Part shown: positions 1 through 57,140 of the stretch, piece by piece
Position numbering within the stretch: position 1 is the first letter of the stretch
Layout: the number at the start of each line of letters is the position of its first letter
Source of the DNA: Candidatus Thorarchaeota archaeon
GTDB lineage: Archaea > Asgardarchaeota > Thorarchaeia > Thorarchaeales > Thorarchaeaceae
Assembly (NCBI GenBank): GCA_029855935.1
Contig: JAGSHN010000022.1
Location: 1 to 64,000, forward strand
Length of the DNA stretch: 64,000 bases
Direction: 5' to 3'
Notes under the pieces: generated by a model
Databases searched by the model: none
The model's input: the letters and a program-made list of their open reading frames with translations, nothing else
What the model was told of the DNA's origin: nothing
Position numbers and translations under genes: made by a program

Positions 1-183
1 GAGTGGCTGTACACACTTCTGAATTTCAGCGAGGCACTCGCGAACCGCGAGATTGACGAGGCGGGAGAGATTCTGAGGGCGTTCAGCGAGGAGCAGACGA
101 TTCAGGAAGTCATGAACGCGTGCCTGAGCATTGTGGAGGAACGCGAGAAGTCCAAGCGGCTTGCTCGCAAGAAGAAACAGTGA
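1..183 (+). CDS. 3' end of a helical hypothetical protein (partial)
   Basis: Frame 1 is open from the window edge: EWLYTLLNFSEALANREIDEAGEILRAF...RKKKQ*; amphipathic helices. Confidence 0.7.
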   Translation, partial: EWLYTLLNFSEALANREIDEAGEILRAFSEEQTIQEVMNACLSIVEEREKSKRLARKKKQ

Positions 184-367
184 CCTCCTTCTGCTCGACC
201 GACGGTCTGTGATGGAGTACTTCAGTCCTGAGCCCCACCCACGCGAATCGTAGTCCGTCAGGTATGTGACCGTGGTAACAGTGCTCTCGGACGGGACGTG
301 TGACCGTCAGAACGGCCTCTGTCTGTAGAGATGACTCGCACCGCAGTCAGATGAACGAGTAGCGCCT

Positions 368-1630
368 CTACTCTGCAGCACCGACACGAATCTCCGCGCT
401 CTCGACAATCTCAGGAAACGACTCGTCGGGGGAGGAGAGTCTCAGCGTGACAATTCCCGTGCCCAGAGCGACGCCTCGCAAGTAGATCTGGAAACGCATA
501 GTCTCGCCGGTCCCAATGAACTGTATCGTCTTCTCTCTCCCGCCCAGAGATATCTCCAATTCATCAGATGGTTCGATGCTCAGCACGAGGTTGTTTGCAG
601 GACCATCTCCTCTGTTCCTGATATCAACATCCAACACGACCTCGTCGCCAATCTCGCAGCTGATCCTCTTTGGTGAGATTGCCATCTGCACATCGGGCGG
701 GGCCGGTGATATCTCGAACCTGATGACGTTGCTCTGTTTGTGGACGAGTACACGGTCGCCCTCCAATGTCAGGCGGATTGGCCCTACGACGGCCTCGCCA
801 CTCAAGACGGGAGTTATCTCCATCAACCAAGACCCGGTCGTCGAGACCTCGCCGCCTATGTCAGGCTCACGAACGAAGGCGAGACTGTTGGAAAGCGGCA
901 AACGATAGTCCACCACCCTCACTGGGACAGGACACCTGTATCGAAGCTCGAACTCCAGAGGTGTCTTGACGGTGACGAGCTCCTGGGATGGGCCTGCCCA
1001 CTCTACTGCCACCTCGGTCTCCATCGCGTATCGGACTGAGGCCGTGACAAACTCGATGAGGTCCCTCACGCTGTCATCGGTCTTCACAGCAGCCACGGTC
1101 TTGTCCAGAACGTCGGTACGGATGTCGTGACCCTCGCAGAGCACTCCGACGCACATCTCGGCAAGCTTGAACAGACTTGTCTTGTGACCCGAGCGGCTGG
1201 CTCGGCGTTGTTCCATCTTCCGGGACAGATTGATGGCTGTGTCAAACATTCTCGCAGCGAGATAGCACAGCACGGCAGTGGCAAGGGCATCGAGTGACTC
1301 TCGCATCTTGCGCTCGCGCTTGAGATGATCCGAGGCCTCAGCAAATAGCGCGCCGCCATCCGAGAACAGCGCATCGTTGATCATCAATCTCGCAGCATGC
1401 ATCTTCATCTCGGCGGCACGGACGTGGTCATCATCCTCGAGTGCAGCATATGCTGCCTCGCGATAATACTTGACGGCAAACTGTACGTGACCTGCCTCCA
1501 AGAACTTCTCAGCGGCCTTCTCGTACTCGATGCTGGCGTAGTCGGGGTAGCCCTCCTCGAGCTCCTCAAGCGCCTTGTCAATGTGTTTCTTCGCCTTCTC
1601 AACCGGGTCCCGACGTAGGAACTTGAACAT
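368..1630 (-). CDS. SNAP/TPR-like alpha-solenoid fused to two Ig-like (CARDB/ASH-like) domains
   Basis: ATG at 1630 (MFKFLRR). N-half has helical repeats (YEKAAEKF, YYREAAYA, AVLCYLAA); C-half is beta-rich with VLDVDIRNRGDGPANNL and IQFIGTGETMRFQIYL. Confidence 0.7.
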   Translation of the reverse strand: MFKFLRRDPVEKAKKHIDKALEELEEGYPDYASIEYEKAAEKFLEAGHVQFAVKYYREAAYAALEDDDHVRAAEMKMHAARLMINDALFSDGGALFAEASDHLKRERKMRESLDALATAVLCYLAARMFDTAINLSRKMEQRRASRSGHKTSLFKLAEMCVGVLCEGHDIRTDVLDKTVAAVKTDDSVRDLIEFVTASVRYAMETEVAVEWAGPSQELVTVKTPLEFELRYRCPVPVRVVDYRLPLSNSLAFVREPDIGGEVSTTGSWLMEITPVLSGEAVVGPIRLTLEGDRVLVHKQSNVIRFEISPAPPDVQMAISPKRISCEIGDEVVLDVDIRNRGDGPANNLVLSIEPSDELEISLGGREKTIQFIGTGETMRFQIYLRGVALGTGIVTLRLSSPDESFPEIVESAEIRVGAAE

Positions 1631-5001: not shown

Positions 5002-5961
5002 TCAGATCTCCTCCTTGGCCTCCTTCGTCGATGCTGCCTTGTACAGCATACCGAGGCCAACGGCCGCAAATATGGACCCTGACGTGAGTCCACCAGCATA
5101 CCAGAGGCCCTGCTTCAGTGCCAGATAGAACAGGCCAGCACCAATGAGCAGGAACACAAGTCCTCCGGCAAGGGCCGCTGCCCTGAAGGCGAGTGTGCGC
5201 GGGTACTTGCTCTCTATGACATAGCCAGTCGCCGCAGAGACCGAGGCCTTGTAGGTACTCCGACCGTAGCGGTACTTCAGCTCCCACACGGGAACGTGGA
5301 TCAGATAGGCCTCTCCGACCTTGATATTGTCGTCGCGGGACTCGATCTTGTCGACCTCCTCAAGGACAAGGGCCGTCTGCCGGTTGTAGGCCTCCTGCTT
5401 TGCCTGCTCGCGTGCCTGTTCCTCGCTCACCTTGCTGTGCAGGACAATCCCGTCATGTTCCTCAGCGTGTGCGTGACTGAAGTACTCACGCGACCGCGTC
5501 GGAATCGGGAAGCGTTTGATATCCTCGTCGATGTCCTCAATCCCGGGAATGGAGATCTCGTACCGACGCTGGAATCGTCCAGACTCGGGCTTGTAGTAGA
5601 ACTCGATTCTCTTGAAGGCCTCAGGTCGCTGGGGCCAGCGGTCGTAGAACCTGGCGTCCTTTCCAAGTCCCTGGTATCGTGTGTCGGCCTCTACATTGCA
5701 CACCCAAAACGGGTAAAAGACCAGCTTTGCCTCGACAAAGCGTGCTGCGACAGCAAGGTCATCGGGGGCTCCCAGCTGTTTGGAACACCAGTCGAGGAGG
5801 GTGCGCTCGGCGTCGCTCCTGTCAAAGTGGACACGAATCATGTAGTGTTTCTCGAACTTGGCACCCTCAGTGGTCTGTGCAGTGCCGCAGTACGGACAGA
5901 CAAGGAGTATGTCGCCAGGTCCGGTCTCAAACTCAGCTCCACAGAAAGCACATCTTGCCAT
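5002..5961 (-). CDS. YdjG-like zinc-ribbon membrane protein (copy 2)
   Basis: CAFC...CPYCG ribbon, LVFYPFW, IHVPVWELKYRYG, two C-terminal TM helices. Confidence 0.75.
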   Translation of the reverse strand: MARCAFCGAEFETGPGDILLVCPYCGTAQTTEGAKFEKHYMIRVHFDRSDAERTLLDWCSKQLGAPDDLAVAARFVEAKLVFYPFWVCNVEADTRYQGLGKDARFYDRWPQRPEAFKRIEFYYKPESGRFQRRYEISIPGIEDIDEDIKRFPIPTRSREYFSHAHAEEHDGIVLHSKVSEEQAREQAKQEAYNRQTALVLEEVDKIESRDDNIKVGEAYLIHVPVWELKYRYGRSTYKASVSAATGYVIESKYPRTLAFRAAALAGGLVFLLIGAGLFYLALKQGLWYAGGLTSGSIFAAVGLGMLYKAASTKEAKEEI

Positions 5962-5970
5962 TGTATCACC

Positions 5971-7011
5971 TCACCCCCGCTTCTCCCGCTGTGTCATGAA
6001 CAGCACCCTGTAGCCAAAGACTGCAAGTACGATTCCGATGACTGCCAAGAGCCCACCGAGGGCCAACTCCCTGAACGTATCGGCAATCAATGCGAGATAC
6101 GCCATCTGGGCCCCGAAGCCAGCGAGGACCGTGCCAATGAGTCCGACAATCGTCCAGAGCGCCCTCTGGCCCCGAGTTATCGGAATCTCGCCAATCACCA
6201 CCTTGCCCTCGTGACCGTCCATCGCCACCTTGTAGAGGTCACCTTTGTACTTGTAGCGGATGAGGACGAATGGAACCTGAAGGTAGGTGCTGTCACGCAC
6301 CTCGGTCACCGTCCTGCAGTCGAACAGCTCTGTCAGGCGGGACTTTGCCTGTTCCCGGTGCCTGTCGGACACTCGACTGTGTATGGCCTTCTCGAACTCC
6401 TCCTGTCCGATCTCAGCATTAAGGATCGTTGGGTTCAGATCCTTGATCTTCGAGAAGTCGTACTTCTCTGCATCCTTGACATCTATCTGGTTCAGATACT
6501 CCTCCAGACCATAGAAGCGAGCGCCCCTACGAGCGAGGAGTGGCTCGTCGGTCACGGTGTGAATCTCGTCATCCACTGGGACATAGCCGGTCTCGTAGTC
6601 CGTGTATGTTTCCGTGTGTGTCCGTCCATCGCTGTCAGTGACCGTTCTCGTTCTCTGGACCGGTACCTGTACGGTCCTGTAGCCTCTGTATCGCGTGTCA
6701 GCCTTCACTTTCGCTGTCCAGACCGGGACGTAGATGAGCGTATGTTCGACCACCTCGGCCTTATCGGGAAGGTCCTTGTTGATTCCCTTGTTCTTCTCAA
6801 GGAACTTGCGAAATCCTCTGAGCCGGGCCTTCTCATCTTTGGCGGTCTCCATCAGATGGGCACCTATCTCCTTGCCCTCGATGGTCGTCGTGCTACCACA
6901 ATAGGGGCACGTGACAACAACGTCATCCGGGCCGGTCCGCACATTGCCGTTGCAGACGGGACACTTGAACATGTCCACCGACTGTGCTTCCGATCCCATT
7001 TTGCAATACAC
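5971..7011 (-). CDS. YdjG-like zinc-ribbon membrane protein (copy 1)
   Basis: CPVC...CPYCG, LIYVPVW, LQVPFVLIRYKYKG...MDGHEGKV, two C-terminal TMs; tandem paralogue of the 5002-5961 gene. Confidence 0.75.
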   Translation of the reverse strand: MYCKMGSEAQSVDMFKCPVCNGNVRTGPDDVVVTCPYCGSTTTIEGKEIGAHLMETAKDEKARLRGFRKFLEKNKGINKDLPDKAEVVEHTLIYVPVWTAKVKADTRYRGYRTVQVPVQRTRTVTDSDGRTHTETYTDYETGYVPVDDEIHTVTDEPLLARRGARFYGLEEYLNQIDVKDAEKYDFSKIKDLNPTILNAEIGQEEFEKAIHSRVSDRHREQAKSRLTELFDCRTVTEVRDSTYLQVPFVLIRYKYKGDLYKVAMDGHEGKVVIGEIPITRGQRALWTIVGLIGTVLAGFGAQMAYLALIADTFRELALGGLLAVIGIVLAVFGYRVLFMTQREKRG

Positions 7012-7182
7012 CTATCCTTTTGGGGCAGACAAACGGCGATTCCCGACGTGGGCTATTATTACTTGTGGTGATAGTTCCAAGTCCCTCAGGCGTATGGGCC
7101 ATTCCTGCCGTGGACAATCGGGAGACCTTCGCCACTTTTTTATCGCTTCGTTGGAAGGGCTCTCATAGAGAGGCACAGAACG

Positions 7183-7338
7183 ATGTCCGGACCGCAGCCA
7201 GACGAGGAAATCGACGAAACAGAGCTGGATGAGATGGACTACGAGGACTGGGGTGAGGAGGAAGAGTGGGAAGAGGAGGACTGGGGCGACGACGAGTGGA
7301 CAGCCACGTATCGAGACGAGGATGACGATGACTGGTGA
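7183..7338 (+). CDS. 51-aa highly acidic, Trp-rich micro-protein (not in ORF track)
   Basis: MSGPQPDEEIDETELDEMDYEDWGEEEEWEEEDWGDDEWTATYRDEDDDDW*; TATA-like TTTTTTAT at about 7136-7143 and GAGAGG at 7168-7173; fills an intergenic gap. Confidence 0.7.
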   Translation: MSGPQPDEEIDETELDEMDYEDWGEEEEWEEEDWGDDEWTATYRDEDDDDW

Positions 7339-7392
7339 GGCCGCTGGCCATGCGGCCTCTTGCCAGCCAGAGGACCCGCGTCCCCGGGGGAG

Positions 7393-8253
7393 CTAGAAGA
7401 GTCCGTCCTTCATTGCCGTCTGACAGTCACAGCTGGCCTTCTCTGGAATCTTGGGGATCATCTCGAAGGTCAGCTTACGCACGCGCTCAATGTTCGACGC
7501 CATTGTCTTGAGGACCATCTCGTGGGTGACCACCTCGTCACCGTGGACATCGTAGTCGGTCGGCATAGAGATATTGACGAAACAGATCCCGGCCTCACGT
7601 GCCAAGGCCGCCTCTGGGTACGCAGTCATCCCGATGACATCCCAGCCCATCTTGTGGTAAAACATCGACTCTGCACGGGTGGAGAATCTCGGTCCGTTGA
7701 TGCAGACGTATGTCCCCTTCTCGTGGGCCTTGTATCCCAGCTCCTTTGCCGTCTCGAAGGCTATTCTGCGGAGCTCAGGACAGAACGGTTCTGCAAAGGC
7801 AAGATGCGCAACGGGCCCGCCCTCAAAGAACGTGTCCTTTCTCCGGCCGAACGTCCGGTCAAAGAGCTGGTCCGCAATCACAAACTCGCCCAGCTTGATC
7901 CTGTCAGGCTGAAGGCTGCCGCAGGCCGCAGGGCTTATCAGTCTGCGCACGCCGAGGGCCTTCATCCCCCAGATGTTCGCACGATAGTTTATCATATGCG
8001 GGGGGATCCTGTGGCCTCTCGCGTGACGAGCGAGAAAGGCAAACGAGCGGCCCTTCACTGTGCCGACGATGAAGTTGTCTGACGGAGCGCCGTAGGGGGT
8101 GAAGACCTTCACCTCAATGGGATTGTCAATCACTGTCGGGTCGTAGTTGCCGCTGCCGCCGAACATCCCAATCTCGATGGGCAGCAGCGCCTCAAACTCT
8201 TCCTTCTGACTCCTGTCGATTGGTACACACTCGAGCTTCGCCTCAAAGGCCAT
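7393..8253 (-). CDS. mtnP: S-methyl-5'-thioadenosine phosphorylase
   Basis: GGSG, TPYGAPS, ARH, INYRANIW, GPRFSTRAES, GMT..PEA.LARE, TDYD. Confidence 0.93.
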   Translation of the reverse strand: MAFEAKLECVPIDRSQKEEFEALLPIEIGMFGGSGNYDPTVIDNPIEVKVFTPYGAPSDNFIVGTVKGRSFAFLARHARGHRIPPHMINYRANIWGMKALGVRRLISPAACGSLQPDRIKLGEFVIADQLFDRTFGRRKDTFFEGGPVAHLAFAEPFCPELRRIAFETAKELGYKAHEKGTYVCINGPRFSTRAESMFYHKMGWDVIGMTAYPEAALAREAGICFVNISMPTDYDVHGDEVVTHEMVLKTMASNIERVRKLTFEMIPKIPEKASCDCQTAMKDGLF

Positions 8254-8392
8254 CTCCGGTCACATCTCCTCAGGCTCTGCCGATGGTCAACGCTCTCCTC
8301 CATTTATAGATACTGACCACTGGGGCAGGACCGTTTCGATGGGCTGGCCGCCCACAAGATGCCACCGGTCGACGGGACGCTACGAGGCGAAC

Positions 8393-9064
8393 CTAGTCCT
8401 TCTCCTTGAGACGCCAGAGCCCCTTAGGATCGTCCTCAAGATGGCCGAGGTAGACCATATGCTGGCGAACGGTCTCAAGCTCGTCATCCGGAAGAACCAC
8501 GTTATTGTATTCCCGGAGGTGCTTCTTGACGTCACGCAGTGTCATCTCGGTCAGTTTCTCGCCCTTGAAGATCTCAAGGACAAGATGGGTCAGGTCCTCC
8601 ATACGATTCCACGGGAAGATCTCCCATGCCCAGGTGACCTCGACACCGTAGTAGTCAGGAACGAACTTGGAGCCGACTATGTGCATCAGTGTGGCAGAAC
8701 GCACCTCGGCAGGGCCCTTCTCCTTGACGTGGTTCACAGCCATCGTCAGGCTCTCGCCCGTGTCTGTGATGTCGTCAACCACAAGGACGCGCTTTCCAGT
8801 CACATCAGCCGTAAGCGGGCTAGTCAGTCGCGCCTTACCATCCTTCGTCGCGGTGACGCCCCAGTGATCGACCTTCACGCTGTAGAGCTCCTTGACACCG
8901 AGGAGGTCACACTGGATTCGGGCATGTACCCATCCACCGCGCGCTATGCCGACAATCACATCCGGACGCCAGCCCGATGTCTTGATCTTGGCAGCGGTCT
9001 GCGTCGCGTACTTGTAGATGTCGTCAAAGTCTAGAACGTAACAGAGGGGACCTTTCAGCTCCAT
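8393..9064 (-). CDS. Purine phosphoribosyltransferase (type I PRT)
   Basis: IARGG, PRPP loop VLVVDDITDTGESL, PDYY, WEIFPW; ATG at 9064. Confidence 0.9.
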   Translation of the reverse strand: MELKGPLCYVLDFDDIYKYATQTAAKIKTSGWRPDVIVGIARGGWVHARIQCDLLGVKELYSVKVDHWGVTATKDGKARLTSPLTADVTGKRVLVVDDITDTGESLTMAVNHVKEKGPAEVRSATLMHIVGSKFVPDYYGVEVTWAWEIFPWNRMEDLTHLVLEIFKGEKLTEMTLRDVKKHLREYNNVVLPDDELETVRQHMVYLGHLEDDPKGLWRLKEKD

Positions 9065-9120
9065 CGTGCAGCACCATCTGATTCCGGGGCGCACGTAGAG
9101 AGATAATAAATCTGACGACA

Positions 9121-9960
9121 CTACACCAACGTCTCGATAATGAGCGAGTCGACGTGCCCGGGACGATATCTGATCCTGACAGCGATGTCATCGCCCGTCC
9201 GCACCTCCACAGGCTGTGCCAGGGGAAGCAACAGGTCGCGCCAACCGTCCTCTGGGAACAGGCGGATATCACGAGTGAGAGATGCCTCAAAGAAACCAAC
9301 AAAGCCGTGCACCGTTCCATTCTCTACGGCCTCGAACTCTATCTTCTTGTCAACACTGACCGGAGCGGGTGCCCCGAAGTCGAACGTCGCAAGTACGGCC
9401 GCGTCACTGAGGTCACGGGCGGCCCCCCGGTCCACCGTCTGTGGCACCAGAGGAAATCTGAGAGCGTGAACACCGAACCGGTCCAGCAGATGCGGACACT
9501 CCACAGGCACAAGATAGACCGTCGCATTGCGTGGGAGAATCGCTCCGTCATGCCTCAGCACCTTCTGAACGGCGTGTGCGCACGCCTCGACCTGCTGTTC
9601 CACCAACATCATCGAGGACAGCATCTCGCATATCACAACATCCGCTCGCTCTGACGGGACAAACTCAGCAAAGTGGGACTCCACAAACTCAGTACGGGAA
9701 GACAGGTCATTTATCTCCGCAGCGTGCCGCGCGTAGGATACGCAGAGTGGATTGATGTCAACGCCAATCACTCTCCGCGCTCCAGATCTCGCCGCAAATA
9801 GGGCCAGCACACCTGACCCCGTCCCCAGATCAACAACAATGGCATCGTTGTTCACGGTCTCCTCGATGGCTATGCGGAATTTTTCCAGCCGAGAGGAGTG
9901 TGAGAGCAGGCTGACAGCGTGGAGGAGGGAGAATGGTGTAGCCAGACCAGAGGACGTCAT
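9121..9960 (-). CDS. PRMT-like SAM-dependent methyltransferase
   Basis: VDLGTGSG motif I, double-E loop CEMLSSMMLVEQ, ILP...VYLVPVE, beta-barrel GTVHGFVGFF; ATG at 9960. Confidence 0.8.
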   Translation of the reverse strand: MTSSGLATPFSLLHAVSLLSHSSRLEKFRIAIEETVNNDAIVVDLGTGSGVLALFAARSGARRVIGVDINPLCVSYARHAAEINDLSSRTEFVESHFAEFVPSERADVVICEMLSSMMLVEQQVEACAHAVQKVLRHDGAILPRNATVYLVPVECPHLLDRFGVHALRFPLVPQTVDRGAARDLSDAAVLATFDFGAPAPVSVDKKIEFEAVENGTVHGFVGFFEASLTRDIRLFPEDGWRDLLLPLAQPVEVRTGDDIAVRIRYRPGHVDSLIIETLV

Positions 9961-10042
9961 CGTTTTGCCGTAAAGCCACGTTATTATAACTGAGAGTATT
10001 GCACCCACGTCAGACCTCTGTCCTGCTCTGGTACCACATCCG

Positions 10043-11227
10043 GTGGTGCCCTGTGAGGTGACCAAGACGAGATCACCAGACCTTGAAGATGCCGTTGAGG
10101 CAATGCGACAGCAACAGTTCGAAGAGGCGGTCACCATTCTTGAGAGACTGGCCGAGACCCGAGGCAATGACCCGGAGGTCCTCGTCTATCTTGGCGTGGC
10201 CTATGTACAGGCGGAGCGCCCAAGAAAGGCGATAGATGTTCTTCGCAGGGCGGAGGAGATCGTAGAAGATCACCCGGTCATAGCGCAGTTCCTCGGCCGT
10301 TCCTATAAGGCAATCAAGGAGTACGCACTGGCTGAGAGATACCTTGAGATGGCAGTCTCGCTGGACCCTGAGGCCTACGACTCGTGGCTGGACCTCGGAG
10401 AGGTGCTGTATCTGAGTCAGCAGTACGGTCGTGCCGCGGACGTTCTATCAACCGCGTGTGAGCGATTTCCCGGGGATGCGGCCCTCCACTCAATCCTTGC
10501 AATGGCGTTCTATCGCCTAGGTGATTACACACAGGCAGCTGACGAGTGGTCCGTGGTCTATAGACAACGGCCTGACTCAATCGTTGCCCTCGCAAACTAT
10601 GCCTACACGCTGCTCTACTTGGGACGCATCGAAGACACTCTTCCTCTGATGGAGCGGGCGAAGGAGATTGCACCGACACACTACAGAACGCTGATGATCT
10701 GCGGCGAGGTGGAATTCCAGAGAGGCAACCTCGACGTCGCACAGGAGTACTTCGAGCGGGCACTCGACAAGTGCAGTGTGAGCGCCGAGGCCCTGGGACG
10801 CCTTGCACTGATAGAGGAGTTTCGCGGCAATATCAAGAGAGCCGAGTTCTATCTCACACTGGTCAGAGAGCTGATGGAGCGCGATCCGTCAGCGTGGCAG
10901 AGGACTTGTGATATCCACGTGCGGCGCGGCGACTACGACGGCCACCTCCAATGTCTCCACGGTGCGGTTGAGAGAGATCCGAACTCCCCAGCAGCGTGGG
11001 TGGGCCTTGCCTCCGAACTCCAGAGAAGAGGACTCAGAGAGGAGGCGAGTGAGGCGTGGATGAAGGCCATAGAACTGCGCGGCTACGTGAAGGTCTACTG
11101 TCCGCGCTGTCACATCTACCAGCGATACGACATCTCTGACACAACGGAGAAGGTGTTGTCGGTGGCGGTCACGTGCCCGGGCTGTAGTGAGGAGCTGCCG
11201 CTGCCAGAGAGTCTTGCAGTTGTGTGA
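10043..11227 (+). CDS. TPR-repeat protein with C-terminal zinc ribbon
   Basis: About 9 TPR-like units (LVYLGVAY, WLDLGEVLY, AWVGLA) and CPRC...CPGC at the end; exact start uncertain. Confidence 0.85.
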   Translation: MVPCEVTKTRSPDLEDAVEAMRQQQFEEAVTILERLAETRGNDPEVLVYLGVAYVQAERPRKAIDVLRRAEEIVEDHPVIAQFLGRSYKAIKEYALAERYLEMAVSLDPEAYDSWLDLGEVLYLSQQYGRAADVLSTACERFPGDAALHSILAMAFYRLGDYTQAADEWSVVYRQRPDSIVALANYAYTLLYLGRIEDTLPLMERAKEIAPTHYRTLMICGEVEFQRGNLDVAQEYFERALDKCSVSAEALGRLALIEEFRGNIKRAEFYLTLVRELMERDPSAWQRTCDIHVRRGDYDGHLQCLHGAVERDPNSPAAWVGLASELQRRGLREEASEAWMKAIELRGYVKVYCPRCHIYQRYDISDTTEKVLSVAVTCPGCSEELPLPESLAVV

Positions 11228-46795: not shown

Positions 46796-48127
46796 ATGCC
46801 ATCCGCGTCGACTTACGATGAGCTGGCGGACAGACTGGAAACCAGAAGCGCGACCGTCGGAGTGATCGGCGTCGGCTACATTGGTCTTCCGACAGCTGCG
46901 ATACTTGCCAGTGAGGGATACAGGGTCATCGGATTCGACATCGATGAGAAGAAGGTGCGAGTACTGAACTCGGGTGGTTGCTACATTGATGAGCCCGATC
47001 TGCCTTGGATTGTCTCCGGAGTGGTCGACGCCGGTCGACTCGTCGGCACAACCGATTTTCGTAAGATGGCAGAGTGCGATGTGCTTATGTTCTGCACCCA
47101 GACGCCGCTCAAGAGTGATGGTACCCCGAATCTGGACATCTTGTTCTCGGCCGTTGACTGCGCGCTGGAACACGCTAGACCCGGTATACTGATCATATGC
47201 GAGAGCACTGTCCCCCCGGGGACGACGCAGCGCATCGTAGAGAGATTCGTCTCCACCGGCTCGTTCCAACTCGACAAGAGTCTCTGGGCCGCCCACTGTC
47301 CCGAGAGAGTCCTTCCGGGGAAGGTCGTGCAGGAGCTCAGGACCAATGACAGGGTGATAGGCGGCATCACTCCAGCATCGGCAACTCTTGCCCGGAAGCT
47401 GTACGAGTCGTTTCTAGACCCAGACAGAATAATGGAGACCCGCGCCACGGTTTCCGAGTTTGCAAAGCTGGCGGAGAACACCTATCGTGATGTCAACATA
47501 GCACTGGCCAATGAGATGGCGATCGCCGCGGACCTCCTCGGGATTGACATCACCGAGGTGATAGCTCTGGCCAACCGCCACCCAAGAGTCAACATCCACA
47601 GACCTGGAGTGGGCGTTGGCGGCCACTGTCTGCCAAAGGACCCGATTCTACTCTCCACAGCGGTCACGGAGAGAGGAGGCAGGCTGGATCTGACCCTGAA
47701 GGCCCGCGAGATCAACTCCGCGATGCCAAGGTTTGCCGTGTCTCTCCTCGAGCGTGTCGTTGGCAGTGACGGGTTAAAGGACAGGAGAGTCTTGGTGCTG
47801 GGAATCACATTCAAGGAGGATGTCGACGACACGAGAAACTCTCCTTCCAAGGTGCTCATCGAGGAGCTGAGAAAGAGAGGAGCCTTCGTCCGCGCTCACG
47901 ACCCGAAGACAGATGAACGGTTCGGAGCCGACAATGTGACGGACCTGAAGAGCGGCATTGATTGGGCCGAGGCCATTGTTCTTGCTGTAGCTCATAGTGA
48001 GTATCGTATTGCTCTGCCACGGATGGACCTCCAGGGCAAGGTCTTTCTAGATGGTCGCAATATCTTCTCACCCAGTGAGATTAGTGCTGGTGTGTACCTA
48101 GGAATTGGCCGTCCGGTGAGGCAGTAG
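46796..48127 (+). CDS. Nucleotide-sugar dehydrogenase (WecC/WbpA type)
   Basis: GVGYIG, ESTVPPGTT, CPERVLPG, KLAENTYRDVNIA, GVGGHCLPKD. Confidence 0.93.
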   Translation: MPSASTYDELADRLETRSATVGVIGVGYIGLPTAAILASEGYRVIGFDIDEKKVRVLNSGGCYIDEPDLPWIVSGVVDAGRLVGTTDFRKMAECDVLMFCTQTPLKSDGTPNLDILFSAVDCALEHARPGILIICESTVPPGTTQRIVERFVSTGSFQLDKSLWAAHCPERVLPGKVVQELRTNDRVIGGITPASATLARKLYESFLDPDRIMETRATVSEFAKLAENTYRDVNIALANEMAIAADLLGIDITEVIALANRHPRVNIHRPGVGVGGHCLPKDPILLSTAVTERGGRLDLTLKAREINSAMPRFAVSLLERVVGSDGLKDRRVLVLGITFKEDVDDTRNSPSKVLIEELRKRGAFVRAHDPKTDERFGADNVTDLKSGIDWAEAIVLAVAHSEYRIALPRMDLQGKVFLDGRNIFSPSEISAGVYLGIGRPVRQ

Positions 48128-48402
48128 CCAGCCAATTGCCACATGGTTTCCATAGGATCGTTCCCCAAGTATCAGACAGACCATCTCGTAGCCCGAAGAC
48201 AGATTGGTGAGACGGCCGCTGAGGCCCAGCGGTTGGCCCGAGATTGCTCAGTCTCAGGCAAGTATCGCAGAGGGGAGGGCACGGTTCAGCTGCTACTCCC
48301 AGCGCAGCTCCTCTCAGCAATGATTCTGCCCGCGCAGTGGTTCCTTTGGGTTTCCAGTTTCCCAATAATCATAAAAGACCAACAGCCAGTTCAACTGGGC
48401 GT

Positions 48403-49572
48403 ATGTCAAGACGTGCAGAGCGCCTCATAATTCGACTTTTTCAGTTCATCATTCTCTGCGCCGACTGGCTATTCCCGAAGGACAGGCGCATCCTGATCTT
48501 TGGATCGCACGCGGGAAAATACGTTGGAGGAAACTCAAGGGTTCTCTTCGACTTCATAAGGTCTCGACGTGACTCGCCTTTCATTTGCTACTTCTTCACA
48601 CGCACTCGTTCCGTTGACCCACACGTTCTCACCCTTCAACCTCCAAGGCTCAAGACAATTATCCTATTCCTTATGGCAAAGACAATACTGGTGACGCACG
48701 GCCTATCCGATATGCATTGGCTACGTTTCTCTCGCCGCAAGTACTACATCAAGCTGTGGCACGGTCGCCCGGGGCTAAAGGGCGATGGCTATTCCATCAG
48801 GCGTGTGTCCCCACAAGTTCTTCGTCGTGTTGAGAGAGAGGCGCGCCAGACGACGGCATTCCTGGTGTGCTCGAGAATCGAGGCATATATGAGAGCGTTT
48901 TCGAATGCCCTGCGCCCACATCAGATACTCCCTCTTGGCTATCCCCGCAATGACATACTACTGAGGGGGAAAAGAACTGGACCAAGTAGGCTAAGAAAAA
49001 TCTTCAGTGGAGTTGATTTTTCCCGCGTGATACTATACGCCCCCACGTGGAGAACATACGCCTCAACAAGATTCTTTCCGTGGGATGACTTTGAGAAGGC
49101 GAAGCTTCTAGAATGGCTCGCTCAACACAATGCCATCCTGCTCCTACGAGCACACAGGAATGACCAGATTCCTGTTGTCGAATCGGAGAGAATAAGAAAT
49201 CTAAGTTTCGACAGATGCGCGGAGGTCACGGAGATACTGCCAGAGGTAGACGTGTTGGTCACCGACTACTCTTCAATTGCCGCTGACTTCTTGCTTCTAG
49301 ATCGTCCTATCATATACGTGCCATACGATATGGAGGAATTCGAAGAGAATGTCGGTGTTTGTTACGACGACGCCTATTCTTGGATGCCGGGTCAGGTGGC
49401 TAGGACGTTCAATGAGTTCCTACTGGCCCTAGAAAAGGCTCTCTCGGATGATGACGGATTCGCAGGCGAGCGTCGAAGAGTCAACCGAATTATCAATAGC
49501 TACCAATCGCGGAACTCCTCGTACAGAATCTTTCTCTACCTCAAGAAACTGCTGGGACTGAGTACACAATGA
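48403..49572 (+). CDS. CDP-polyol:poly(polyol-phosphate) transferase, TagF/TagB family
   Basis: LWHG, GYPRND, ILYAPTWR, LVTDYSS, DFLLLDRPI. Confidence 0.88.
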   Translation: MSRRAERLIIRLFQFIILCADWLFPKDRRILIFGSHAGKYVGGNSRVLFDFIRSRRDSPFICYFFTRTRSVDPHVLTLQPPRLKTIILFLMAKTILVTHGLSDMHWLRFSRRKYYIKLWHGRPGLKGDGYSIRRVSPQVLRRVEREARQTTAFLVCSRIEAYMRAFSNALRPHQILPLGYPRNDILLRGKRTGPSRLRKIFSGVDFSRVILYAPTWRTYASTRFFPWDDFEKAKLLEWLAQHNAILLLRAHRNDQIPVVESERIRNLSFDRCAEVTEILPEVDVLVTDYSSIAADFLLLDRPIIYVPYDMEEFEENVGVCYDDAYSWMPGQVARTFNEFLLALEKALSDDDGFAGERRRVNRIINSYQSRNSSYRIFLYLKKLLGLSTQ

Positions 49573-50315
49573 TGGACATTGTTATTGTAGCAGGTGGACT
49601 GGGAACGAGACTTGCCGGGAAAGAAGGCCGCATCCCTAAGACCCTCCTGCCAGTTGGAGACCGTACGATTCTCGACATCATCATAGGCACAATGAATGAG
49701 GTATTCGACGGAGGTTTTCATCTGATCATAGCTGCAGGTGTCTTCTTCGAAGACCTGAGGAGTTACATTCAATCAAGGTGGAAGGATAGGAATGTCGAGG
49801 TCGTGAGAGCAAGCAAATGGAAGGAGGGCAACGCCGCCACCGTCTTGGCTGCAGAAGAGTTGATAGGTGGACCCCAGTTCATAGTGCAGATGTCCGATCA
49901 CCTATTCGCTCCTGAGACCTACCAGCGCTGTACCGGCAAGATCAACGTGGATATTCCGGCAGTCTGTGCGCAGCCTGCATCTGATGGTATACCGGCCTAT
50001 CTTGATTTGGACGATGCTACGAAGATACTTGCTGACAAGGACAACAGGATACGAGCAATTGGGAAGGATTTGACAGACTGGAATGCCATTGACATGGGAA
50101 TCTTTCGTTTCCCGACTGACATCTTCGAAACAATCCGGTCCCTTCCCTACGGTAAGAAGAGTCTCAGCGAGTGTGTCAGAGCAAGGATTGCGTCTACTGG
50201 CTTCTTCGTTAGCCTACAGCCGGGTGCAATTTGGAAAGACATCGACTCGGAGGCCGACCTACAGTGGGCTACTAGAATGGCAGAAGACGGGCTGTGGGGC
50301 ACCGAGAACAGCTAG
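49569..50315 (+). CDS. Sugar-phosphate cytidylyltransferase, IPCT/LicC-like
   Basis: VAGGLGTRL..PK.L, GN, MSDH, DLDDATK, IGKDL...AIDMGIF, WKDID. Confidence 0.8.
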   Translation: MMDIVIVAGGLGTRLAGKEGRIPKTLLPVGDRTILDIIIGTMNEVFDGGFHLIIAAGVFFEDLRSYIQSRWKDRNVEVVRASKWKEGNAATVLAAEELIGGPQFIVQMSDHLFAPETYQRCTGKINVDIPAVCAQPASDGIPAYLDLDDATKILADKDNRIRAIGKDLTDWNAIDMGIFRFPTDIFETIRSLPYGKKSLSECVRARIASTGFFVSLQPGAIWKDIDSEADLQWATRMAEDGLWGTENS

Positions 50316-50437
50316 GGAATACATCATATCTCCGAGATTTTCCGAGACACAAGGGAGGTTCTTGGTCTAGACAGACAGAGCCGCGAGGGGCCTAGTTTGA
50401 TGTTCGCGTTCCAGAGCACTTTGATTCGACTTTCGGT

Positions 50438-51541
50438 TCAAACCATAGAGAAACGCGGGATTGAAATATCGTCACTGGCCAAGATCTTGGCGATACGTCT
50501 TGAGGCCTGCCCATCACCATAGACCGAAGGGTCATTTGACAACTCCTTTCCCCACATCATACTACACTTTGCAACAATATCTGAGGCATCAGCTCGGGAA
50601 AGAACGTTCGCACCGGCTCGGAGGGTCTCCACCCACTCCGTGTTGTCGCGAACAGTAACGCACGGCGTATTCAGTAGGTAGGCTTCTTTCTGAAGGCCCC
50701 CTGAATCAGTCACCAGCAACTGCGCACGGCTCACGAGAGCCATCATATGGGTATACGGAAAGGGTCGTACTACCAGCACATTATCGCCTAGCCGGAGACC
50801 CGTTTCGGTTAGCTTCTTTCTCGTTCTGGGATGCACAGGAAACACGATCTTGAACTCCAGCCTACTGAGTCCGGAGAGAATCGAGCGAAATCGCCAAGGA
50901 TCATCCACATTCTCGCGTCTATGAAGGGTGAGGACCGCAAACTCATCCACATCTAGCCTCGCAGCCCGCCGCATCGACTCGTAGAACTCGTCACTCGAAA
51001 AAACTTCTAGTTTGTCTTTCAAGACGTCGTACATAGTGTCACCCACGTGGTAGACATCGCCCCTAACATTTTCACGCCGGAGATTGTTGACAGCAGTAGT
51101 TGTCGGTGCAAACAATGCACTAGAGCCGTGGTCTATCAGTCGCCTATTGATTTCTTCTTGCATATACATGTCATAGCTTCGTAGTCCTGACTCGAGATGA
51201 GCAGTCGGAATGTCCATCTTGAAACCAGTCAGTGCCGCCGCCAGTGCCGAGTTAGTGTCCCCGGGCACCAACATACAGTCGGGACGGGTCTCTTCGAGCA
51301 CCGGCACCAGCCGTTCAATAATTCTCGATGTTTGAACAGGGCTACTGAAGCTCCCCACGCCAAGATTGAAGTCCGGAGAGGGAATACTCAACTCTTCTAT
51401 GAACTGGGTGGCCATCTCATAGTCGTAGTGCTGCCCAGTATGAATGAAAACAACATCGATGTCATTCTCAGTGGTCGCTTGGAGGACTGGTGCGGTCTTG
51501 ACTATCTGGGGACGGGTACCGGTGACAACAGCTACTCTCAT
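50438..51541 (-). CDS. wecB: UDP-GlcNAc 2-epimerase (non-hydrolysing)
   Basis: GTRP..K, HTGQHY, GDTNS, HLESGLRS, TLHRREN, TDSGGLQKEA. Confidence 0.93.
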   Translation of the reverse strand: MRVAVVTGTRPQIVKTAPVLQATTENDIDVVFIHTGQHYDYEMATQFIEELSIPSPDFNLGVGSFSSPVQTSRIIERLVPVLEETRPDCMLVPGDTNSALAAALTGFKMDIPTAHLESGLRSYDMYMQEEINRRLIDHGSSALFAPTTTAVNNLRRENVRGDVYHVGDTMYDVLKDKLEVFSSDEFYESMRRAARLDVDEFAVLTLHRRENVDDPWRFRSILSGLSRLEFKIVFPVHPRTRKKLTETGLRLGDNVLVVRPFPYTHMMALVSRAQLLVTDSGGLQKEAYLLNTPCVTVRDNTEWVETLRAGANVLSRADASDIVAKCSMMWGKELSNDPSVYGDGQASRRIAKILASDDISIPRFSMV

Positions 51542-51665
51542 TTCTTGGTCGGCCCCACACGTAGGCTCAGCCATAAGTAAGTGTCGCTACACTTGAAACC
51601 AGAAAGCGGCGTGGTGCCCAGCGACAACAACGATTATAGGGTCACACCCTACTGGGTCGAATGCG

Positions 51666-52739
51666 ATGCCTCCGCTCTCCAAATGGTTCATGAAGCAGTA
51701 TTGGCGGCTCACCACAATACGAGCATTGTTTGGCGTATTATTGGGAATGCTAGTCTTGGGGCGATACTACTATGGTTTCGTTCCCTTCCTGAGAGACCTC
51801 GATCCGTCCATTGCGGGGGCGGTCATTCTCGCGGGGATTCTCCTTGTTGGCTTTCTCTTCTTTGGGTGGCTCTACGACGATGTGCTCCGGCTCTGGAACG
51901 AAAAGTCGCAAGTGGCAATAGAGAAGGATCCCTACTCATATGTTCCCCTTCTACGAGTAAAGATGCTGGACTACCCCTACTTCTATTCTTGGCTGTACCT
52001 GCTAAAGAATCTGGCAGAGGAGGTTGAGGTCTCTACGCAATGGCTCTCAGACCTAGCCGCATACCTACACGAATACTACAGCCGAAGGCCCGACAAAAGA
52101 ACGGACCTGTTTGGTTCGCTGCCAAAGGGTGAGGCATTCCTATTGCGACACCCTTTTGCCGGAGAAGGGTCTGACAAGTCACCACGGCGGAATCTCGCCT
52201 CACGCGCAAAGAAAATGTTTATGCTACAAGTGTGGCGACTCAGTTGGGTTCAGAACTTTACGGGCGTGGTTCAAGATAGCCTAGTGTTTGCTGCTCTCTA
52301 CGTAGGAATCCTATTTGGATTGAACACTGGAGAGGGTACAGTTCCTGTAGGCTTGATGCTAGTAGGTATCATTCTCATCGCGGTTCCCTTCGTGGCGATA
52401 CAAATCGCCGCAGGATGGTACTATGACAAGAAGCTGCAGCTATGGAGCCCCGACCAAGTCGTGAAGGTCGAACGGAATCCGTTCACATACATTCCAGAGC
52501 CGAGGCTCGTAGGCTTCGCAGCACCGTTTCTGTTTGTAACGCTGTCGACGCTTCGCGAGCTGTGTGTTGCGTACGGGATTCCCGAGAGCGATATCGAGAG
52601 GCTTGCAAACCACATTGATGCCTTCTTTGGACTAGCCGCTGGAGGCGAAAGAGGGATTGAGAGGGCGTTGCAGCTGCAGAGGGAGTTCGGAGAGGTCTTC
52701 ACGATTCCCACTACGGTCGATCCCTCAGAGGAGGAATAG
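51666..52739 (+). CDS. Unknown membrane protein, two tandem copies of one domain
   Basis: M(K/L)Q.WRL...GW.YD..L.LW...V..E.(D/N)P(Y/F).Y.P occurs twice. Confidence 0.85.
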   Translation: MPPLSKWFMKQYWRLTTIRALFGVLLGMLVLGRYYYGFVPFLRDLDPSIAGAVILAGILLVGFLFFGWLYDDVLRLWNEKSQVAIEKDPYSYVPLLRVKMLDYPYFYSWLYLLKNLAEEVEVSTQWLSDLAAYLHEYYSRRPDKRTDLFGSLPKGEAFLLRHPFAGEGSDKSPRRNLASRAKKMFMLQVWRLSWVQNFTGVVQDSLVFAALYVGILFGLNTGEGTVPVGLMLVGIILIAVPFVAIQIAAGWYYDKKLQLWSPDQVVKVERNPFTYIPEPRLVGFAAPFLFVTLSTLRELCVAYGIPESDIERLANHIDAFFGLAAGGERGIERALQLQREFGEVFTIPTTVDPSEEE

Positions 52740-52741
52740 AA

Positions 52742-53293
52742 ATGGCAATCAGGAAATGGATAATGAAACAATACTGGAGGCTTGTTCAGGTCAGAGGAAT
52801 TTGGAACCTGTTCTATGGAGTGCTATTGCTGGCCGTCGCCTACTACGCATACGTTCCCGTGTTCCTGCAGATGGGCGCAGCAGGGCCACTGGTTTTTGCT
52901 GCCCTATTGTTGGGAACTTTCCTATTCTTGGGATACCTGTACGACCGCGTCTTCGTGTTATGGGGTCCCCAACAAGAGGTAGTCATAGAACGCAATCCCT
53001 ACCAGTACGTGCCTCATCCCCGGGACAAGATTCTTTGGTTCCCAGTGTACACAGTGTTTCTCAACACAGCCGAGCTCGTACTCAGCAGATTGGGGAGAGA
53101 TGCCACACCGATTCGCGAAACACGCGAGTATTTTGCAATTCTACAGACTCTCACCCCGTACCGAAAAGAAGACCTTCAAGCAGCGCTCAAGCTCAGAAAC
53201 GAGTTCATCGCTCGTCATCCCTTCAGTCAGTTAGTTGACGAGGAAGACGTCGACACGGTGGCCACCGCGGACGGGGAAACTACACATGAATGA
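52742..53293 (+). CDS. Unknown membrane protein, single copy of the same domain
   Basis: WIMKQYWRL, GYLYDRVFVLW, IERNPYQYVP. Confidence 0.85.
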   Translation: MAIRKWIMKQYWRLVQVRGIWNLFYGVLLLAVAYYAYVPVFLQMGAAGPLVFAALLLGTFLFLGYLYDRVFVLWGPQQEVVIERNPYQYVPHPRDKILWFPVYTVFLNTAELVLSRLGRDATPIRETREYFAILQTLTPYRKEDLQAALKLRNEFIARHPFSQLVDEEDVDTVATADGETTHE

Positions 53294-53687
53294 ACCTCTG
53301 TGTTCCGCAGCGCGGCCCGAGGCAAAGAACAGGACGGACTCTCATCATATCATATCATCATGCTTCTTGGCCTCACTCCTTTGATCCGACATCCTGGAGA
53401 AGTGCTGATCAGTCTCCCGAATCTATAGTGTCATCATTCCAATACACTCGCACATCTCTTCGTCTTCGGAATCCTGATCGCGGCACTGGGTGGGCGTGAT
53501 GATGGCAGGGTGAGTGTTCTGTGGAGATCGATATCATTCGTCCCTGAGGCGACATGTTGGAGAGATGTCACTCACGATGATGCCACACAGTCGAGATGCG
53601 CACCGAGGAGGAGTGAAAGGACCCGGCCGAGAGTCGAAACTTTGAAATACAAACCGGGCCGGCAGCTCGGGTAAGCGTGAATAGATA

Positions 53688-54722
53688 ATGAGGGTATTGC
53701 ACCTCGTACCAACCAGTGTAGTCGATTTCGTGAGGCAAGACATTGAGCACCTGAATAAGGTAGCAGGCATCAAGGCCACACCTATGCGAATTGGTTGGTC
53801 TGGTAGAAGAACAATATTCAACACTCTTCTCTCGCTTGTGAGACTCCTTGTGACTGGAATCATCGTACGATTGAAACGGCCAGATGTGGTGCATGCGCAC
53901 TTTCTCCAATCCACCATTCCCGCACTTGTCTCTGGAGTTCCTACAGTGGTAACAGTCCACGAGTCACGTGATATCCCGGCCCTCTTTTGGCGAAGTCTCT
54001 TTGTTGCAACTGCGCGTCGCTGCAAGCGTATCTATATCTCCCACCACAACAAGGAGTACTGGGAGGGGATATTGGGAGATGGCGAGGTGATCTATCACGC
54101 GGTCGACACAGAGATGTACAGTCCTTCCAAACGCAATGATGAACTCAAGAACTCTCTGAAGATTGAACTGAACTGCAAGTACGTTGCCCTTGCAATGGGT
54201 GGTTTTGTTCCCGATAGAGGATTTCACATCATTGTGAAGGGAATCGCCCATCTCAGACGAACAGGCGTTGATGTGGGCCTTGTCATCAAGGGCTATGGTG
54301 CAAACCAAGAATATGCGGCGCATATCAGAGAACTGGCGAGTAGGCTCGACCTGCCTCTGAAGATAATCGAGAGACATCTCACAGATGAGGAGATAGCAGA
54401 ACTGTTCGCATCGGTTGATGTGTATGTGCGTGCAACATTCAGCGATGGCTTTGGTATTGCACCATTGGAGGCCCAATCGTGTGGGACACCTGTTGTAGTC
54501 ACTGATTGCTGCAGTCTGAAGGAGATATTCGCAGACTCATCATTGCGATTCAAGAAAGGTGACTATGTGGGTCTTGCCGAACAGGTCAGCAAGATCTTGA
54601 CAGACACATCAGTTCGCGACGAGCTAGTCAAAGCAGGAATGAAGAATGCACATAGATTCCTATGGTCTGTGAAGATGAGACGATATGTTGCATACTACAA
54701 CAGTGTCCTACGCCGCCGATGA
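53688..54722 (+). CDS. GT4 glycosyltransferase
   Basis: PDVVHAH, TVH, DGFGIAPLEAQSCGTPVV. Confidence 0.9.
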   Translation: MRVLHLVPTSVVDFVRQDIEHLNKVAGIKATPMRIGWSGRRTIFNTLLSLVRLLVTGIIVRLKRPDVVHAHFLQSTIPALVSGVPTVVTVHESRDIPALFWRSLFVATARRCKRIYISHHNKEYWEGILGDGEVIYHAVDTEMYSPSKRNDELKNSLKIELNCKYVALAMGGFVPDRGFHIIVKGIAHLRRTGVDVGLVIKGYGANQEYAAHIRELASRLDLPLKIIERHLTDEEIAELFASVDVYVRATFSDGFGIAPLEAQSCGTPVVVTDCCSLKEIFADSSLRFKKGDYVGLAEQVSKILTDTSVRDELVKAGMKNAHRFLWSVKMRRYVAYYNSVLRRR

Positions 54723-54995
54723 TGAAGAGGCAGGAAATCTCATCATCTACCAATTGTCACAATTGTCAGTAGGCCAAAGAGGACTCTGGTATCCTCAAGC
54801 CCGCTCATATATGACTTGGGATGACACCAAAAGCGTGATTCATTTGAAGTACAGGTCCTATTGTGGGGAGAAGATATGCTATCACGGGCTGTTCGACGCC
54901 GGATAGTCATATGGTTCTGCCGCCATCAGATACGTGTACGAGAGTCTGGACCAAATTGATAAGGGCTAGCCATTCCGCAAGTAGATGAGCCTACT

Positions 54996-56888: not shown

Positions 56889-57140
56889 AATGACTCAGAG
56901 ACCAGTACCGGGCATATGATAGGCCAGGCCTGACTGAGAATCCGCTTTCGAAATGTCGAACCAGCAATAGCCAAGATGAGAGGCCTATGCAGTCATCATC
57001 TCACCGATTCCGAACAGAGTATTGCGTCGTGCCCCTCTCATTCTCAGGGGATTGTTCCACGGCCTTGCGCCATGGTCCCTCAGTAAAGCCATTTGGACAT
57101 ATTATGGCAAAGAGAACGACCAGCCCAGTGAGACGAGATC

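Follow-up and report, generated by a model that had tools for sequence, protein, structure and literature searches.

Two eukaryotic systems of disordered, highly charged proteins lie close to the subject of this report. The hub protein DSS1/Sem1, treated in PMC6218214 and PMC7641332, is small, disordered and very acidic and carries tryptophan (Trp) anchors, and in each of these traits the archaeal micro-protein described here is like it, disorder being a prediction in the latter case. Prothymosin-alpha and linker histone H1, according to PMC7661507 and PMC10576128, form a polyelectrolyte complex that is disordered and of high affinity. Here, we describe a micro-gene at positions 7183..7338 of the forward strand in a 64,000-nucleotide stretch of DNA, the window, taken from contig JAGSHN010000022.1 of a Candidatus Thorarchaeota archaeon. 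The genome is a 97%-complete assembly of 2.97 Mb in 32 contigs. Asgard archaea are intensively searched for forerunners of eukaryotic cell biology, and annotation pipelines do not call genes so small.

The micro-gene consists of 51 codons, beginning with ATG, followed by a TGA stop. A scripted tally of its product returned 15 glutamate (Glu) and 13 aspartate (Asp) residues, hence 28 acidic positions, together with five Trp and a single arginine, Arg44, which is the only basic residue and the only site for tryptic cleavage; cysteine is absent. Asp and Glu make up 55% of the chain, and the computed net charge at pH 7 is about −27. These counts agree with a preliminary description of the locus, which had been made from the DNA letters and which singled out two strings, EDW followed after five residues by WEEEDWGDD, and a C-terminal EDDDDW; both are present in the product. 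That description also considered the gene to have been missed by the open reading frame (ORF) track, and a set of about 15 billion predicted proteins indeed does not contain the exact sequence; an orthologue from a related metagenome-assembled genome is annotated as a 65-amino-acid hypothetical protein of ‘Candidatus Thorarchaeota archaeon’. A Pfam hmmscan of the micro-protein returned no family at E ≤ 10. The ESM Atlas returned unnamed clusters only, with a best feature score of 0.82, and its ‘Highly_acidic’ Pfam cluster scored 0.75, below the useful level.

The micro-gene and its relatives downstream of mtnP

Within its own genome, the micro-gene is singular. A whole-genome scan for at least 13 Asp/Glu and at least two Trp in 25 amino acids retrieved one stop-to-stop frame, which is the micro-gene; it is likewise the only frame in the genome that ends in Trp with at least five Asp/Glu in its last eight residues. 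Widening the latter test to frames ending in W, F or Y admitted two, the micro-gene and one other.

To compare loci across related genomes, mtnP (7393..8253, reverse strand), which encodes a 5′-methylthioadenosine (MTA) phosphorylase-type PNP_UDP_1 protein (Pfam E = 5e-46), served as the synteny anchor. It is the last gene of a row made up of a protein arginine methyltransferase (PRMT)-like gene, a phosphoribosyltransferase (PRTase) gene and mtnP. We use working labels throughout: the family is f1, its genera are g1–g16, and the window genome belongs to g1. The anchor was matched in 56 of 61 sampled f1 genomes and loci were collected for 54, the G020 and G060 loci being left out since the mtnP match was cut by a contig end. 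Downstream of mtnP, 43 of the 54 loci hold at least one acidic-aromatic micro-frame, 51 frames in total, and 50 of these are convergent with mtnP; the upstream flanks of the same 54 loci hold none, with total flank lengths about equal (111 kb versus 103 kb). No micro-frame was found in the other 11 loci, of which ten belong to genus g5 and the last, from g10, has a short flank. A Shine-Dalgarno-like site lies 2–9 nucleotides before the start codon in 45 of the 51 micro-frames (19 TTG, 16 ATG and 10 GTG starts), and Trp is the last residue in 46. Differences at the first, second and third codon positions of the frame number 262, 240 and 835 over 65 within-genus pairs, which are not independent; this periodicity is the pattern of a coding frame.

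The window copy carries putative expression signals of its own, as the preliminary description had proposed. Directly readable in the sequence are a TATA-like box, TTTTTTAT, at 7136..7143, with CAC just before it, as a putative promoter element, and a Shine-Dalgarno-like GAGAGG at 7168..7173, 9 nucleotides 5′ of the ATG. In the aligned upstream regions, the columns of this T-rich box are invariant in five of five g1 genomes, and the four congeners place GGAGG 5–6 nucleotides ahead of TTG or GTG starts. Among listed sequencing runs, no RNA run was found to contain this stretch; one DNA run contains it and may be its source.

Taken together, the single occurrence in the genome, the census on the mtnP side, the ribosome-binding sites ahead of start codons, the Trp at the C-terminus and the third-position excess argue that 7183..7338 is very probably a real translated gene. 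The contrary view, that the frame arose by chance in a GA-rich intergenic tract or merely mirrors a feature of the complementary strand, draws on the low complexity of the sequence, on the opposite strand and the +1 frame being open across the micro-gene as well, and on the gene having gone uncalled in public predictions. It is hard to square with a census so one-sided around mtnP, with conserved ribosome-binding sites and start codons, with a conserved terminal Trp and stop, and with substitutions that favor the third position of this very frame; nor did Rfam return a family match at E ≤ 1 for the stretch 6900–7500. We regard this view as largely refuted and highly improbable.

The acidic-Trp micro-frames sort into two kinds. 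Type A frames are 26–35 amino acids long, with a short hydrophobic start, Asp/Glu runs interrupted by Trp every 5–8 residues, and a Trp end. Type B frames, to which the window protein belongs, are 29–51 amino acids long and combine a variable N-terminal part with the core W-x-E-E-[DE]-W-G-D-[DE]-(x)-aromatic and an acidic tail that ends in Trp, or in Phe in two cases. In the window protein, alignments place the conserved core at residues 28–39 (7264..7299, forward strand), where it reads W-x-E-E-[DE]-W-G-D-[DE]-x-W with Trp29, Trp34 and Trp39, and the C-terminal tip, five Asp/Glu followed by Trp51, occupies 7318..7335. In window numbering, W29, E32, W34 and D36 are invariant in nine of nine type-B sequences. 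Across 21 type-B sequences from ten genera, all five Trp of the window protein fall in aromatic columns, and the core columns are kept. The preliminary description had put weight on the presence of orthologues and on conserved Trp spacing; orthologues were found, and both the Trp positions and the synteny with mtnP are conserved among them.

Searching 41 relatives with the window protein alone gave weak matches only (best E = 0.07), and the family emerged from reading the loci. The hidden Markov model (HMM) built from nine type-B sequences scores the window protein, itself one of the nine, at E = 1.4e-7. Of 301 genomes of the phylum it matches 17, namely the window genome and 16 of the 76 other f1 genomes, and none of the 224 genomes from 29 other families; in 16 of the 18 matched places, mtnP is on the same contig and no more than about 1.7 kb away. 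A word-indexed search of a 5.8-billion protein set yielded 22 small proteins and an exhaustive HMMER search of 1.84 billion representatives yielded eight, and every one of these is a type-B ORF of the family loci or a close variant. Longer proteins bearing the type-B motif were not found at E ≤ 0.01 among 7999 scored candidates, which is weak evidence. As far as detected, type B is thus confined to one Thorarchaeota family.

Two micro-gene types and the basic protein c5

Clustering the neighbors in the 54 loci suggests an ancestral gene order, with arrowheads for direction and the micro-genes in brackets: tetratricopeptide repeat (TPR) protein<, acidic-headed membrane protein>, MazG-like>, CN-hydrolase<, [B>], c5<, [A>], mtnP<, PRTase<, PRMT-like<, TPR>. 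In genus g1, the CN-hydrolase block has been relocated to another contig, and type B still stands beside mtnP. The protein that we call c5, of about 278 amino acids and with an isoelectric point (pI) of 10.3–10.7, is a very basic orphan without a Pfam family. Its AlphaFold2 model is confident, with a mean predicted local distance difference test (pLDDT) score of 88.7, and shows two alpha/beta units and a three-helix bundle. Foldseek found no match to this model in the PDB at E ≤ 1e-3, PaaX (8a39) ranking fourth with E = 0.019; a wider structure search matched only the C-terminal three-helix bundle, and the c5 profile against the PDB returned coiled-coil noise only.

The distribution of c5 extends beyond f1. 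At the level of profile matches it occurs in 84 of the 301 genomes: 55 of 76 in f1, 17 of 19 in f12, three of three in f13, three of five in f16, two of three in f21, and four single cases. The f12 homologue, of about 283 amino acids and pI 11.3, aligns to c5 over 235 columns with an hhalign probability of 97.75% and E = 1.3e-12. In 11 of 11 f12 loci (L107–L110 and L112–L118), an acidic, Trp-ended frame of 25–27 amino acids follows the c5 homologue on the same strand; L111, also retrieved by the pattern in f12, was left out as its match is the tail of a 286-amino-acid membrane protein.

The type A profile is insensitive, with candidates in 10 of 301 genomes and none in known positives such as G009, so that the distribution of type A rests on synteny and on a DNA pattern. 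This pattern, five Asp/Glu codons followed by Trp and a stop, was found in 84 of the 301 genomes of the phylum, and its reversed control in five of 301. Its occurrences cluster in f1 (56 of 76, including 24 of 25 in g5), f12 (13 of 19) and f16 (three of five), and the families that bear c5 largely coincide with those showing the pattern. In genus g5, both loci fetched by the pattern hold an acidic-Trp frame beside c5, away from mtnP. As read from these genomes, type A travels with c5 in at least two Asgard families, and the occurrence of the pair in both f1 and f12 suggests an old Asgard arrangement. Lysine-rich micro-frames were also seen in loci L152, L116 and L117, the latter two of f12.

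A terminal Trp after at least five Asp/Glu was also seen in larger proteins of about 260–320 amino acids, namely in L103 and L104 (f14), in L150 at 1549–2445 on the reverse strand (G004) and in L121 (f30); the acidic-Trp tip is therefore not exclusive to micro-genes.

The genus of the window lacks a detectable c5. Queried with a single c5 protein, the window genome gave nothing at E ≤ 1, and with a profile of 16 c5 proteins the best E was 0.12; across five g1 genomes, the c5 profile found nothing at E ≤ 1e-6, the best score (E = 7e-4) being a coiled coil in an unrelated 489-amino-acid frame. Counted by genus at E ≤ 1e-6, c5 was found in none of five g1, none of seven g4 and none of one g16 genomes, in one of three of g11, and in 37 of 45 of the other twelve genera. 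In the loci of g1, g4 and g16, type B is the only micro-gene found (five of five, five of five and one of one, respectively). The genera without detected c5 are thus those in which only type B was found, from which it follows that type A goes with c5, whereas type B can do without it. Each of the 16 genera sampled retains an acidic-Trp micro-gene of one type or both.

A lysine-rich micro-gene is likewise absent from the window locus. A composition scan of the window genome for such a gene gave two matches, the better of which corresponds to the C-terminal end of a ribosomal protein. The gene at 3–365 (forward strand) of contig C5 of G000, at the contig start and directly upstream of the uS5 gene, carries a C-terminal lysine-rich extension of about 60 amino acids; it is probably uL18, going by the usual gene order.

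Judged on these genomic comparisons, the role of type B in the genus of the window is independent of c5. Neither c5 nor a lysine-rich micro-gene was detected in the genus, and yet type B is kept, which suggests that type B would act on something else; by the same absence, a mutual charge-neutralizing complex would not be the role of the window protein. What is new here is the division into type A and type B, the pairing of a c5 homologue with a micro-gene in a second Asgard family, and type B occurring without c5. The class would thus have split into two branches, type A with c5 across Asgard families and type B surviving without it.

A proposed mode of action and its alternatives

The AlphaFold2 model of the micro-protein has a mean pLDDT of 62.6 and a predicted template modeling score (pTM) of 0.19, with a single eight-residue helix, and the micro-protein is accordingly predicted to be intrinsically disordered. 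The preliminary description had offered a disordered adaptor or nucleic-acid mimic; the first half of this proposal is supported by the prediction of disorder, and the adaptor or mimic role is what we infer as the most plausible kind of mechanism.

In the mechanism that we tentatively put forward, the micro-protein would be a disordered, polyanionic, Trp-anchored ligand or mimic. The micro-gene is very probably transcribed and translated independently, and its product would remain disordered while clamping onto basic surfaces or tails presented by one partner protein or by several. Most of the binding would come from long-range electrostatics, which the Trp side chains and the carboxylate of the terminal Trp would sharpen by docking into pockets, and the bound peptide would be a competitor of nucleic acid or of some other acidic ligand. 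Support comes from the tie, at the level of the class, to the very basic c5 and from the analogy to disordered polyelectrolyte pairs as set out in PMC7661507. We consider the mechanism quite possible, though still short of probable.

Several observations weigh against it. The window copy is the most divergent of its genus, with 43–63% identity to its congeners versus 86–92% for mtnP; it has a TATYR insertion that is private to it; and it shows proportionally more first- and second-position changes, for example 13/10/24 at the three codon positions in comparison with G001. Relaxed selection could account for such divergence as well. The neighboring genes encode no basic partner, the computed charges being −1 for MtnP, −4 for the PRTase, −12 for the PRMT-like protein and −20 for the TPR protein. 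The sole conserved neighbor is convergent, so that co-transcription offers no hint. Lastly, composition alone would equally allow the binding of cations or polyamines.

The divergence of the window copy bears most directly on the possibility that the micro-gene is an evolutionary leftover, an orphan of the c5 module that in this genus lost its partners, c5 and the lysine-rich micro-gene, and has little or no present function. The absence of a detected c5 from the genus is what such an orphan would be expected to show, as is the outcome of the lysine-rich scan, in which one of two matches traced to the ribosomal protein tail; the private insertion points the same way. Three observations speak for continued function: i) type B is kept in all fetched loci of the three genera without detected c5, ii) the window copy retains an intact promoter-like box, Shine-Dalgarno-like site and start codon as well as the core motif and the Trp at its C-terminus, and iii) third-position changes still exceed those at the first and second positions. 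We take the leftover reading to be unlikely; the window copy being the fastest evolving of its genus, it nevertheless deserves some weight.

The same composition could serve a small-molecule or ion ligand, that is, a protein that buffers or carries Mg2+, Ca2+, Fe or polyamines in the cytoplasm and in which Trp contributes cation-pi contacts. With more than half of its residues acidic and so large a negative charge, the micro-protein would suit this purpose, and the MTA/adenine salvage genes mtnP and PRTase next to it supply a loose link to polyamines. This link, however, is to convergent genes and is lost in genus g5; moreover, a buffer needs no conserved W-G-D core or terminal Trp, and the single copy per genome gives no sign of high dosage. 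On balance a buffer or carrier seems distinctly improbable.

The space between the convergent stops invites a further alternative. The gap from the micro-gene stop to the mtnP stop is 55 nucleotides and contains a GC-rich hairpin at 7332..7366, with a core stem pairing 7337–7344 with 7352–7359; the micro-gene stop codon lies inside its left arm. The fold of 76 nucleotides has a computed energy of −34.5 kcal/mol and z = −1.6, which is not significant alone. By eye, GC-rich hairpins of differing sequence occupy the convergent gap of many loci (for example L011, L012, L013, L021, L024 and L026), and a T-rich tract frequently comes after them on the strand of the micro-gene. The hairpin may be a shared terminator.

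Acidic runs are reported to destabilize ribosomes in E. coli, and mtnP recycles the by-product of polyamine synthesis. It is conceivable that translation itself is the function, with an Asp/Glu-rich ORF sensing Mg2+, polyamines or the supply of Trp, Asp or Glu and gating read-through past the hairpin, antisense to the mtnP operon. The position of the stop codon within the hairpin arm, the convergent mtnP operon 55 nucleotides on and the tie of mtnP to polyamine synthesis would all suit such a sensor. Against it, conservation extends beyond composition to particular residues (the W-G-D core, the last Trp and aromatic columns numbering four or five), type A copies lie elsewhere in g5 genomes and beside c5 homologues in another family, the T-rich tracts after hairpins in many loci are as in plain terminators, and the window hairpin folds no better than shuffled sequences. 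We give little credence to a translational sensor.

The remaining neighbors were considered as partners of the micro-protein and set aside: the TPR, PRMT-like, PRTase and MtnP proteins are all neutral to acidic, and genus g5 keeps all of these genes with no micro-gene found beside mtnP in any of ten loci. The charge of the TPR protein in particular argues against it as a receptor. As an observation on the neighborhood itself, the row at 7393–10167 on the reverse strand, in which the PRMT-like methyltransferase is followed by the PRTase-domain protein and then mtnP, is conserved across the family and links a protein-arginine-methyltransferase-like gene to MTA and adenine salvage genes; the methyltransferase passes the Pfam cut-off for PRMT5_C, the PRMT5 beta-barrel (32.0 versus 30.3 bits), and a relative scores 39.5. 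On the other side of the micro-gene, and divergent from it, 5002–5961 and 5971–7011 on the reverse strand encode tandem paralogues that begin with a zinc ribbon and carry membrane helices at the C-terminus; they have weak Pfam matches only (Prok-RING_1, Zn_ribbon_PaaD) and an arrangement seen in the window genome only. In the g4 locus L022, type B is separated from mtnP by an 80-amino-acid frame rich in Glu, Arg and Lys (1057–1299, forward strand; pI 9.9), about 200 nucleotides downstream of type B and on the same strand; this frame is identical in L031 and absent from the window. The G+C content of the window is 57%, and 48001–58000 is lower, at 0.50–0.53.

The proposal of a disordered, Trp-anchored polyanion admits a bolder extension, in which acidic-Trp micro-proteins would be Asgard-wide, free-standing docking peptides, polyanions that mimic nucleic acid or acidic tails and whose spaced Trp and terminal Trp carboxylate plug into basic nucleic-acid-binding proteins. 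Type B, kept even where c5 is gone, would then be a general hub and a prokaryotic functional forerunner of DSS1/Sem1-type or acidic-activation-domain-type interactions, whether of independent origin or too diverged to recognize. We offer this extension as speculation and think it unlikely. The micro-protein, which would be maintained by selection while made almost wholly of Asp, Glu and Trp, nevertheless carries significance on either outcome: should its partner be a conserved nucleic-acid-binding or scaffold protein, it would provide a prokaryotic case of the disordered acidic hub logic of DSS1/Sem1 and prothymosin, and otherwise it would still be a new micro-protein family for Asgard annotation. 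A 51-residue peptide with intrinsic Trp fluorescence offers a clean experimental handle on that partner.

Comparison with known acidic and tryptophan-bearing proteins

The preliminary description saw a resemblance to DSS1/Sem1, which as kinship did not hold up. The DSS1/Sem1 family model PF05160 (cut-off 32.2 bits) gave no match to the micro-protein at E ≤ 10, and in a six-frame search of the genome it gave none at E ≤ 10 with two candidates scored, nulls that are to be read with the reservation that HMMER filters may drop weak biased matches. None of nine type-B members matched any Pfam family at E ≤ 10, and no PDB chain was found at E ≤ 10 either by phmmer of the micro-protein or by hmmsearch of the type-B profile. 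The literature searched contained no paper joining Asgard archaea with DSS1 or Sem1 and none on archaeal small acidic proteins with a C-terminal tryptophan; the passages searched of the preprint 10.64898/2026.07.02.735847 contain nothing on such peptides.

An Asgard counterpart of DSS1/Sem1, homologous or analogous, would dock its Trp motifs on PCI-domain or OB-fold (RPA-type) proteins. The acidic composition with spaced Trp and the predicted disorder fit such a counterpart, and the PCI model PF01399 passes its cut-off on three frames of the genome, the best at 26.5 versus 22 bits. This best frame (contig C21:225559–225771 of G000; L098, 1396–2244, reverse strand) belongs to a 282-amino-acid helical-repeat and winged-helix protein with a short acidic tail. 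The same model, however, matches six of 14 ordinary prokaryote controls too, which makes a PCI partner doubtful. Together with the PF05160, PDB and literature nulls, the confinement, as far as detected, of type B to one family of the phylum, where a wider spread would be expected of a hub, leaves a DSS1/Sem1 counterpart very unlikely in our estimate.

The likeness of the C-terminus to the acidic-Trp motif of Arp2/3 activators, also raised by the preliminary description, is likewise not supported. A WASP/Scar-type acidic activator of an Arp2/3-like complex would account for an acidic run with Trp close to the C-terminus. The 51 residues contain no WH2 (V) or central (C) element and no amphipathic basic/hydrophobic stretch, and searches of the 97%-complete genome for ARPC4 (PF05856) and ARPC2 (PF04045), run without a positive control, gave no match at E ≤ 0.1. 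The probability that we attach to this reading is close to nil. Within the reach of these comparisons, no homology of the micro-protein to DSS1/Sem1 or to WASP-type activators is detectable, and the likeness to both is best explained by convergence among low-complexity sequences rich in acidic and aromatic residues, an alternative that the preliminary description had itself named. From DSS1/Sem1 the micro-protein differs in length, in motif order and in its restriction to one archaeal family; a DSS1-like way of working is nonetheless plausible.

Other known systems share single features with the micro-protein. LysW/ArgW carriers end in an E-D-W-G-E motif, an acidic Trp tail that docks on basic enzyme surfaces. 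The micro-protein has E-D-W-G-E at residues 21–25, and its core E-D-W-G-D-D resembles the carrier tail; unlike the carriers, it has no N-terminal zinc ribbon, no cysteine and no match to PF21344, the Pfam model that covers this ribbon, and its motif is internal. As its C-terminus is Trp instead of Glu, LysW-type substrate carriage would be impossible for it. Acidic-Trp docking motifs are also known as the W-acidic cargo motifs of kinesin light chain, the Trp motifs of delta-COP and the C-terminal tip of SSB. With these, the micro-protein shares an acidic context and an aromatic docking peg, sometimes at the C-terminus; whereas those motifs lie inside larger proteins, the micro-protein as a whole is a motif array.

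With prothymosin-alpha, the micro-protein has in common an extreme negative charge and predicted disorder, and the mechanism proposed above is of the same kind. Prothymosin is not known to have aromatic anchors. The micro-protein, for which no basic partner was identified in the genome, differs in having five conserved aromatic positions and a terminal Trp, so that docking into pockets would come into play as well. A further close comparison is with type A next to c5, which occurs in the same organism family and at the same spot downstream of mtnP. Both are shorter than 60 amino acids, are over half Asp and Glu, have spaced Trp and a terminal Trp, and possess a ribosome-binding site and hairpin of their own; the window protein, as type B, stands apart from type A by its W-G-D core, its longer and less repetitive N-terminal part and its place in a genus without a detected c5 or lysine-rich micro-gene.

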